Source of the DNA: Candidatus Dojkabacteria bacterium
GTDB lineage: Bacteria > Patescibacteriota > Dojkabacteria > SC72
Length of the DNA: 55,499 nucleotides
Assembly: GCA_040765985.1 (NCBI GenBank)
Contig: JAXGRK010000005.1
Span: 1 to 55,499, forward strand
Direction: 5' to 3'
Shown: piece by piece, positions 12,924 to 14,325 of the stretch
Layout: the number at the start of each line of letters is the position of its first letter
Position numbering within the stretch: position 1 is the first letter of the stretch
Made by a program: the position numbers and the translations under genes
Notes under the pieces: model-generated
What the model was told of the DNA's origin: nothing
The model's database searches: none
The model's input: the letters and a program-made list of their open reading frames with translations, nothing else

Positions 12924-12953
12924 TTGATACTTGCTAATTAAAAAGTATATAAT
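12924..12953 (+). promoter_or_regulatory. Sigma70 promoter for the riboswitch-metK transcript
   Basis: TTGATA 12924-12929, 18-nt spacer, TATAAT 12948-12953; the riboswitch P1 starts 7 nt later. Confidence 0.75.
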
Positions 12954-12959
12954 CTCGTA

Positions 12960-13044
12960 TACATCAAGAGAGGTGGAGGGACTAGCCCTATGATACCTCA
13001 GCAACCAGTAGAAATATATGGTGCTAATTCTAGATAGATGTGAG
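12960..13044 (+). ncRNA. SAM-I (S-box) riboswitch aptamer
   Basis: ACATCAAGAGAGGTGGAGGGACTAGCCCTATGATACCTCAGCAACC...GGTGCTAATTC...AGATGT matches the SAM-I consensus and lies directly upstream of metK. Confidence 0.93.
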
Positions 13045-13053
13045 ATATATACT

Positions 13054-13078
13054 AAGACTCTCACAGAGTCTTTTTTTT
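13054..13078 (+). terminator. Riboswitch-controlled intrinsic terminator
   Basis: AAGACTCT-CAC-AGAGTCTT plus T run. The antiterminator pairs TGTGAGA 13039-13045 with TCTCACA 13059-13065. Confidence 0.9.
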
Positions 13079-13116
13079 ATTCACATCAGTGTATTTAAAT
13101 TTTTAATTTAATAGAT

Positions 13117-14325
13117 GTGAGTAAAACATTTTTAACCTCACCAAAAACATATTTTACATCTGAAAGTGTTACAGAAGGACACCCAGATAAAATGTGTGAT
13201 CAGATTAGTGATGCAGTACTAGATGCATGTTTAAAACAAGATGCCTACTCTCGCGTTGCTTGTGAATGTGCAACTAAGACAGGTTTTGTAGTAGTAATGG
13301 GAGAAATTACTACTAATGCAAACATTAATTTTGATGAACTAATTAGAAAAGTAATATTAGATATTGGATATGATGATAGTTCTAAAAGTTTTGATGGGAA
13401 TACATGTGCTGTACAGGTAGCTATCTCTAAACAGTCTACAGATATATCTATGGGAGTAGATAACGCATTAGAGAAAAGAGACAAACAGAAAAGGGATGAT
13501 ATCGAGAAGATTGGAGCGGGAGACCAAGGTATGATGTTTGGATTTGCATGTGATGAAACACCTGAGTACATGCCCATGCCAATATATCTATCTCATCTTC
13601 TTACTAAACAGTTAGCAAAGGTAAGGAAAGAAAAGAAACTAAATTGGATATATCCTGATGGTAAGAGCCAGGTAATAGTAGAGTATCATAAAGGCAAACC
13701 TATTAGAGTAGATACAATACTAGTAAGTACACAACATAGTGCAGATGTATCTCACGAAGATATTGAGAAAGGTATTAAAAAGTATGTAATATATGAAGTT
13801 ATACCTAAAGAATTAATAGATTCTAAAACAAAAATATATGTTAATCCTACAGGAAGATTTGTAATTGGTGGACCCAAAGGAGATGCAGGGGTTACTGGAA
13901 GAAAAATAATTGTTGATACATACGGAGGAATGAGTAGACATGGTGGAGGAGCATTCAGTGGTAAAGATTGTACAAAGGTAGATAGATCTGCAGCATATAT
14001 GACAAGATATATTGCTAAAAATATTGTAGCTTCAGGATTAGCTTCCCGATGTGAGATACAGATATCATATGCCATTGGTGTTGCAAAACCATTGAGTATA
14101 ATGATGGATACATTTGGTACAGGTAAGATATCTGATGAAAAGATATCTAAGATAATTGATAAAGTGTTTGATTTAAGACCGGGTGCCATTATCAGAGACT
14201 TAGATTTAAGAAAACCCATATTCCAACAGGTAGCATCTTACGGACACTTTGGAAGAGATGATTTAGACTTACCTTGGGAGAGATTAGATAGGGTAAAAGA
14301 GATTAAAAAGATTTCAAAGCAGTAG
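13117..14325 (+). CDS. metK: S-adenosylmethionine synthetase
   Basis: [47 protein letters not shown]; GTG start. Confidence 0.98.

Follow-up and report, generated by a model that had tools for sequence, protein, structure and literature searches.

A metK leader from Candidatus Dojkabacteria with a P4-less SAM-I aptamer, an intrinsic terminator and a putative SAM-coupled start-codon hairpin

The metK Locus and Its Leader

The window analyzed here is a stretch of 55,499 nucleotides from a Dojkabacteria genome (CPR; 633 kb in 12 contigs), and the close relatives of its MetK protein are also named Candidatus Dojkabacteria. Within it, positions 12924-13126 of the forward strand make up the leader of metK, the gene for S-adenosylmethionine synthetase (Table 1). 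Homologues of the encoded protein with the domains PF00438, PF02772 and PF02773 were found, the N-terminus V/M-SKTF is kept among them, and the GTG at 13117-13119 is the first start codon of the MetK open reading frame. The TATAAT of the promoter-like element is found in relatives at an equal spacing from ACATCAAGAG. The transcript is predicted to start near 12959-12961, which would place the P1 5′ strand at the extreme 5′ end of the mRNA. All energies reported here are nearest-neighbor predictions.

Table 1. Features of the metK leader and gene, in coordinates of the window; pairings and energies are predicted.
Feature	Positions	Strand	Remarks
Promoter-like TTGATA-18-TATAAT	12924-12953	+	11/12 matches
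SAM-I (S-box) aptamer, P4-less	12958-13044	+	RF00162 match
Upstream copy of ATAGATGTGAG: J4/1 and P1 3′ strand (X1)	13034-13044	+	
Antiterminator, UGUGAGA (13039-13045) : UCUCACA (13059-13065)	13039-13065	+	-7.1 kcal/mol
Intrinsic terminator, 8-bp stem AAGACUCU/AGAGUCUU, loop CAC, then U8	13054-13078	+	-7.8 kcal/mol
Putative sequestor, 5′ arm of the start hairpin (Y2)	13075-13087	+	13080-13087 alternatively pairs with X1 at 13037-13044
Loop of the start hairpin, A/U-rich, 26 nt	13088-13113	+	Differs among close relatives, stems invariant
Downstream 11-mer copy (13111-13121) and 3′ arm of the start hairpin (X2, 13114-13126)	13111-13126	+	Holds the GTG at 13117-13119
metK (S-adenosylmethionine synthetase), 402 aa	13117-14325	+	GTG start

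For comparison, a close set was assembled by exact-protein look-ups; it consists of contigs from many independent samples whose MetK is 85-96% identical to that of the window. Scans of genome and metagenome collections for close relatives returned only MetK of at most 71% identity. Six more distant lineages of the same MetK clade (L171, L172, L185, L188, L189 and L205; 75-84% identical) have diverged leaders and, with the window, form the seven lineages compared below. An RF00162 match was obtained in all six except L189, in which the aptamer is cut by the contig end.

The Aptamer and the Terminator

The aptamer matches the RF00162 covariance model over its complete length (model positions 1-108) with 69.4 bits against a gathering threshold of 44.4 (E 3.4e-14), and 13 relatives score 63-90 bits. 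Seventeen model positions are deleted, so that P4 is missing and the P1-P4 four-way junction is not formed. P4 is also absent from the rest of the window clade, L171 and L205, and it is present in L172, L185 and L188; because these sister lineages retain P4, its loss would have happened inside this metK clade. Natural P4-less SAM-I aptamers have been reported to be functional and represent a known but uncommon variant (PMC12714719), so the absence of P4 here is compatible with SAM-I membership. The pseudoknot between the P2 loop and J3/4 is formed by CUAG (P2 loop) and CUAG (13030-13033), and it reads CUGG:CCAG in the P4-bearing relatives, so the pair covaries. We infer that the P4-less aptamer binds SAM.

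Downstream of the aptamer, the leader has the organization of a transcriptional platform. The P1 3′ strand GAUGUGAG (13037-13044, hereafter X1) doubles as the 5′ strand of the antiterminator, which competes for X1 and occupies the loop and 5′ arm of the terminator, making the terminator exclusive with the helix formed by the P1 3′ strand. The terminator stem-loop itself spans 13054-13072, with the T8 tract adjoining its 3′ side. An RNAalifold consensus of nine close relatives likewise contains the antiterminator, together with the start hairpin described below; in this consensus the stems are invariant and the loops vary. In L172, the antiterminator carries one compensatory change from G-C to A-U.

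Genomic Context and Origin of metK

SAM-I aptamers are patchily distributed in the class, with matches in 14 of 219 genomes. A search of 34 other genomes of the family yielded no MetK, although the metK leader is present at contig ends in two genomes (G010 and G159). The closest MetK proteins from beyond this clade share about 70% identity and belong to Anaerolineae/Chloroflexota, where donor-like Anaerolineae leaders combine a SAM-I aptamer and a terminator with a clear GGAGG near the start. The metK gene thus looks like a horizontal acquisition that subsequently lost its Shine-Dalgarno sequence and changed its start from ATG to GTG. The long open reading frames of the window are mostly without a Shine-Dalgarno motif, being preceded by A/U-rich sequence with nothing resembling GGAGG, and the genome appears to initiate translation largely without Shine-Dalgarno pairing. 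If so, an accessible start region should be important for initiation.

Two further observations concern the surroundings of metK in other genomes. In L205, whose MetK is 77% identical, a heliorhodopsin gene (PF18761; 1710-2426) follows immediately downstream of metK, encoded on the other strand. Elsewhere in the same class, L192, L193, L197 and L198 carry a SAM-I aptamer before a different type of MetK (MNISLDMYSIESVTNGHPDK); these leaders lack a terminator, and their P1 3′ strand takes part in a local helix, GAAGAUAA:UUAUCUUC. Such platforms are probably purely translational.

A Repeated 11-mer and Its Shared Partner

A preliminary description of this DNA drew attention to an 11-mer, ATAGATGTGAG, that occurs at the P1 3′ strand and again across the metK start. 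The repeat is exact, both copies lie on the forward strand at 13034-13044 and 13111-13121, and there is no third exact copy. Each copy is otherwise constrained, the upstream one by P1 and the antiterminator and the downstream one by coding. The intervening segment ATTCACATC (13079-13087) had been described as complementary to both copies, which holds for 13080-13087: positions 13081-13087 form seven Watson-Crick pairs with the GATGTGA of either copy, and U13080 adds a G·U pair. The remaining base, A13079, fits the start copy only, where it pairs with U13122; the base facing it upstream is A13045, and no pair is formed. An extension missed in the preliminary description lengthens the pairing with the start copy to 13 bp (13075-13087 : 13114-13126). 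The resulting start hairpin has a predicted energy of -13.0 kcal/mol, contains the GUG and is part of the minimum free energy (MFE) fold.

Consequently, the leader also has, by prediction, the parts of a translational OFF platform, namely a sequestor helix over the initiation region and an anti-sequestor (13037-13044 : 13080-13087) that is exclusive with both P1 and the sequestor. The start hairpin overlaps neither the terminator nor the antiterminator. Other roles for elements of this region were considered and set aside. The start hairpin does not look like a second terminator, since no U-tract lies directly 3′ of its stem, either here or in relatives. Opening of the hairpin by translation of an upstream open reading frame is not suggested by the candidate starts, as the ATG at 13019 is located inside the aptamer in a frame that is not conserved, and the GTG at 13089 is absent in relatives.

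Conservation in Close Relatives

In all close relatives, GATGTGAG is kept at both places, as are TTCACATC after the T-tract and the GTG start. The repeat was thus found to persist at the level of this 8-mer in every close relative, a point on which the preliminary description had made its proposal depend. At the start copy, the first three bases of the 11-mer vary: they are ATA in the window, ACA in L176 and AAA in L182. The same description had raised the concern that the GTG might be an assembly error for ATG AGT. This doubt was not borne out, as contigs assembled independently from many samples carry the same GATGTGAGT and the corresponding JGI gene calls begin with V. Covariation, which had been proposed as a further check, gave a divided answer: there is none in the close clade, where the stems are invariant, but some compensatory changes are seen across the seven lineages.

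Dual Complementarity Across Seven Lineages

The TTCACAT block directly 3′ of the T-tract is kept across lineages. In all seven, the extended P1 3′ strand finds a complement that begins 0-9 nt after the terminator tail, with predicted energies of -9.6 to -15.4 kcal/mol. Compared with random 16-mers of the same locus, this X1:Y2 complementarity has p values of 0.003-0.02 per lineage; when the comparison is made with shuffled X1 instead, six lineages give p values of 0.0002-0.023 and L171 gives 0.10. As the lineages share ancestry, combined p values would overstate their independence. The partner sequences differ by lineage, being GGAAGAUGUG:CACAUCUUCU in L185, UGAGAG/UGUGAG:CUCAUA/CUCUCA in L188 and GAAAGAUG..GAG:CUC..CAU.CUUUC in L189. 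Exchanges in the extensions are partly compensatory, for example from A-U to G-C and from G-C to A-U.

In each of the seven lineages, the initiation region also pairs with an overlapping 6-15 nt of the same post-terminator segment. The start codon falls within this pairing in the window, L171, L172, L188 and L189; in L185 and L205, positions -15 to -5 are covered. Because both pairings fall on a shared segment, they are mutually exclusive in all seven lineages. In L205, the competing helices share only a few pairs; L205 was also considered as a clean, translation-only version of the device, and for the same reason it is ambiguous in this respect. As a control, 42 SAM-I metK leaders from Anaerolineae/Chloroflexota and Firmicutes were analyzed in the same way. 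Their p values were uniform (median 0.54, with 1 of 42 below 0.025). Since these leaders are without the feature, the sequence comparison indicates that dual complementarity is specific to this CPR clade and is not general to S-box leaders.

Predicted Energetics and Order of Folding

In the window, exposing positions -4 to +11 of metK is predicted to cost 11.8 kcal/mol when X1 is locked, as it would be in P1, versus 5.0 kcal/mol when X1 is free. At 11.8 kcal/mol, the start is the most buried of the 40 long-ORF starts in the window (median 3.3 kcal/mol). When X1 was shuffled, the mean cost was 10.0 kcal/mol, and 3 of 300 shuffles matched the native value. The cost is higher with X1 locked in all seven lineages, by 1.8-7.5 kcal/mol, the coupling being small in L171 (1.8 kcal/mol). 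In L172 and L185, the MFE structure with X1 free is the X1:Y2 helix around the terminator, and part of the start is released.

Folds of the complete leader are less favorable to switching. When 40 nt of coding sequence are included, the start hairpin is present with or without X1, the start codon has a probability of approximately 0 of being unpaired, and the free P1 3′ strand prefers a helix with codons 12-15 (13149-13161). The absence of switching from these equilibrium folds is, in part, a modeling artifact, because translating ribosomes would disrupt the helix between P1 and codons 12-15; shorter transcripts and opening-cost calculations are more informative. Without the coding stretch, the full-length leader still favors the hairpin fold by 2-3 kcal/mol over the fold with X1:Y2 around the terminator, and the ensemble probabilities are 0.77-0.86 for the start hairpin versus 0.06-0.10 for X1:Y2. 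The former has 13 bp, whereas the upstream helix has 8-10 bp. Any ON state would hence have to be kinetic or ribosome-assisted.

The nascent RNA behaves differently in these predictions. For SAM-free transcripts ending at 13090-13120, the MFE structure is X1:Y2 plus the terminator, at -36.6 kcal/mol versus -28.2 kcal/mol for the antiterminator fold. According to findpath, passing from the antiterminator to this ON fold requires crossing a barrier of 7.6 kcal/mol, and leaving the ON fold for the hairpin fold one of 11.4 kcal/mol; with Y2 free, the hairpin forms over a barrier of 4.5 kcal/mol. The kinetic argument is thus built from MFE structures by transcript length and heuristic barriers rather than from a folding simulation. 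The idea that the upstream copy titrates the segment in the absence of SAM fares accordingly: it agrees with the nascent RNA, in which X1:Y2 is the MFE pairing until the start is transcribed, but not with the full-length equilibrium. The same division appears in the co-transcriptional folding check that had been suggested, carried out here as MFE by length, with X1:Y2 prevailing until the start emerges and the hairpin winning at full length.

A Model With Two Output Layers

Taken together, the comparative and folding data favor a SAM-coupled start-codon hairpin. In the proposed model, the leader would be a SAM-I riboswitch in which a single sensor strand serves two output layers, with X1, Y2 and X2 as the participating strands. 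The first layer would be that of an ordinary S-box: SAM would hold X1 in P1, allowing the terminator to form, and without SAM, X1 would pair with 13059-13065 as the antiterminator, so that RNA polymerase would read through. The second layer would act on RNA that extends beyond the terminator. Here, Y2 could form the 13-bp hairpin with X2 that buries the start codon or, alternatively, the 8-10-bp helix with X1, inside which the terminator hairpin would have formed again. In the SAM-bound state, X1 would be unavailable, Y2 would be left with X2 alone and translation would be blocked; the block would affect transcripts that leak through the terminator and perhaps also completed mRNAs to which SAM binds afterwards.

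Without SAM, X1 would move from the antiterminator to Y2 once Y2 has been made, X2 would emerge unpaired and ribosomes could load. Because the hairpin is predicted to be 2-3 kcal/mol more stable at full length, the ON fold would be metastable in this clade: the start would remain unpaired for a while, whereas SAM-bound read-through RNA would close the hairpin at once. Both the folding order and any effect on translation are model-based. The core of the earlier proposal, that in the SAM-bound state the post-terminator segment is free to hide the start, gains support from the dual, exclusive complementarity in seven lineages, from its absence in the 42 controls and from the predicted opening costs of 11.8 and 5.0 kcal/mol. 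On the strength of the sequence comparisons and folding predictions, we judge it somewhat probable that SAM gates metK translation through the start hairpin.

A broader scenario can be drawn for the history of the leader. A SAM-I aptamer and metK may have passed from a Chloroflexota-like donor into a CPR bacterium without Shine-Dalgarno sites, where the GGAGG was lost and a second, translational output was acquired. In this scenario, the single P1 3′ strand would work first in the antiterminator and would later switch partners by strand exchange to become the anti-sequestor. The loop of the latter would hold the terminator hairpin, and the masked element would be the start codon itself. A kinetic transcription checkpoint and a SAM-sensitive translation checkpoint would thereby be combined in a leader of about 170 nt. 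We regard the chances for and against this composite scenario as evenly balanced.

Alternative Explanations

The start hairpin could instead be constitutive, lowering or stabilizing metK translation or protecting the mRNA equally with and without SAM. The terminator would then be the sole SAM-responsive layer, and the likeness between X1 and X2 would be a by-product of pairing with ACAUC-type strands. A constitutive hairpin would fit its predominance in the predicted full-length folds of both states, its lack of overlap with terminator and antiterminator, and the close-clade stems, which are invariant and show no covariation. It leaves unexplained, however, why the complementarity between the post-terminator segment and the P1 3′ strand recurs in seven of seven lineages with compensatory changes and not in the 42 controls, why two pairings constantly overlap on that segment and why they are coupled by 5-7 kcal/mol; we consider it rather unlikely. 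Another possibility is that the X1:Y2 helix has a non-translational role, such as locking the aptamer open in the read-through mRNA or providing an RNase-stable 5′ UTR, and that the start hairpin is independent of it. The helix is conserved across lineages, and in nascent RNA its combination with the terminator is favored over the antiterminator alone by about 8 kcal/mol. An independent role, however, needs no overlap, and the X1-pairing and start-pairing segments overlap in every lineage; moreover, there is no known need to lock an aptamer once its sole output has been decided. This explanation appears improbable.

The repeat might, finally, be due to chance or be a functionless relic of a small duplication in an A/T-rich region, where the P1 3′ strand (GAUGNGAG) is by coincidence similar to a start encoding Met/Val-Ser (AUG/GUG AGU). 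The ATGAGT starts of other lineages resemble the SAM-I P1 3′ consensus anyway, and conservation of the 11-mer at the start copy does not extend to its ATA. In addition, copies of the 11-mer with one mismatch are not clearly enriched in the window (five versus 2.1 expected, with 6 of 100 shuffles reaching five). Nonetheless, only 18 of 3000 dinucleotide shuffles of the 183-nt leader (0.6%) contain an exact direct repeat of at least 11 nt, the repeat is conserved across many samples, the start that it spans is the most buried in the window and the complementarity is specific to this clade. A chance origin therefore seems highly improbable.

Comparison With Known Riboswitches

Riboswitches are usually classified as either transcriptional or translational, and the SAM-coupled start hairpin proposed here would draw on both types. 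With the terminator/antiterminator S-boxes of Bacillus and Clostridia met genes (RF00162), the leader shares the aptamer core, a K-turn-type P2, the P2-loop/J3-4 pseudoknot, the use of the P1 3′ strand as antiterminator strand, an intrinsic terminator with a U-tract and a metK gene under OFF logic. Unlike these S-boxes, it has no P4, its P1 is very short and predicted to lie at the transcript 5′ end, and the start is predicted to be buried in a further conserved hairpin that follows the terminator and whose 5′ arm is complementary to the P1 3′ strand. A class of leaders with dual transcription and translation attenuation was described by Barrick and Breaker in 2007, in which the ribosome-binding site is located in the terminator 3′ arm and the terminator ends at most 10 nt from the start (PMC2258182). 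The present leader falls outside this class: its terminator stem ends at 13072 and the start lies at 13117, with 44 nt between them. Rather than the terminator, a separate hairpin would hide the start, and the terminator would be nested in the loop of the proposed anti-sequestor.

The thiM leader of Escherichia coli is a translational OFF riboswitch with a sequestor and an anti-sequestor. Corresponding helices have been described for the translational OFF SAM-I riboswitches of Xanthomonas (PMC7270179). The metK leader shares with both a three-strand logic involving the P1 3′ strand as anti-sequestor, the sequestor and the initiation region; under this logic, the anti-sequestor and the initiation region come to look alike, as the 11-mer repeat illustrates. 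The Xanthomonas and thiM leaders hide a Shine-Dalgarno sequence, whereas here it is the GUG itself that would be masked, in a genome whose genes mostly lack Shine-Dalgarno sites. The metK leader further differs in having an intrinsic terminator and in a predicted ON state that is metastable and not the fold favored at equilibrium. The lysC and thiC leaders of E. coli are dual-acting, with translation coupled to Rho termination or RNase E decay (PMC5234074). As proposed for metK, a single ligand-binding event affects two expression steps in these leaders; in lysC and thiC, however, translation is primary and transcription or decay follows, whereas the metK terminator and start hairpin would each be directly controlled by RNA pairing. 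A literature search returned the dual class and the P4-less aptamers and no account of the present arrangement, which is a failure to find and not proof of absence.

If the model is correct, handing the sensor strand from antiterminator to anti-sequestor, with the terminator nested inside, would be a compact means of leak suppression, and finished mRNAs might stay responsive to SAM. It would also illustrate the conversion of a riboswitch platform to start-codon masking in an organism that initiates without Shine-Dalgarno pairing. Few regulatory RNAs can be traced in CPR bacteria, for which inducible control elements are wanted (PMC11665869), and this leader is among them.

Additional Features of the 5′ Coding Region

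Several minor features were observed at and beyond the metK start. Positions 13036-13048, containing the P1 3′ strand, are complementary to the codons at 13149-13161, which encode the conserved Y-F-T-S, through 12 pairs including 2 G·U; this long-range helix between P1 and the coding region appears in the full-length MFE folds of the window, L171, L172, L182 and L183. The sequestor sequence TTCACATC is identical to the F-T-S codons of L171, which may be a coincidence or may indicate that the sequestor originated as a duplicate of 5′ coding sequence. In the window clade, a one-codon start-stop, AUGUGA (13115-13120), overlaps the GUG start; it is absent in L171. The first codons also contain a 21-nt direct repeat (13123-13139 and 13144-13160; KTFLTSP / KTYFTSE). 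L182 and L183 are without one 21-nt unit, and their proteins of 395 and 394 aa start with MSKIFFTSES. Because the long form resembles the N-terminus of Anaerolineae MetK, the short form probably reflects a deletion between the repeats.
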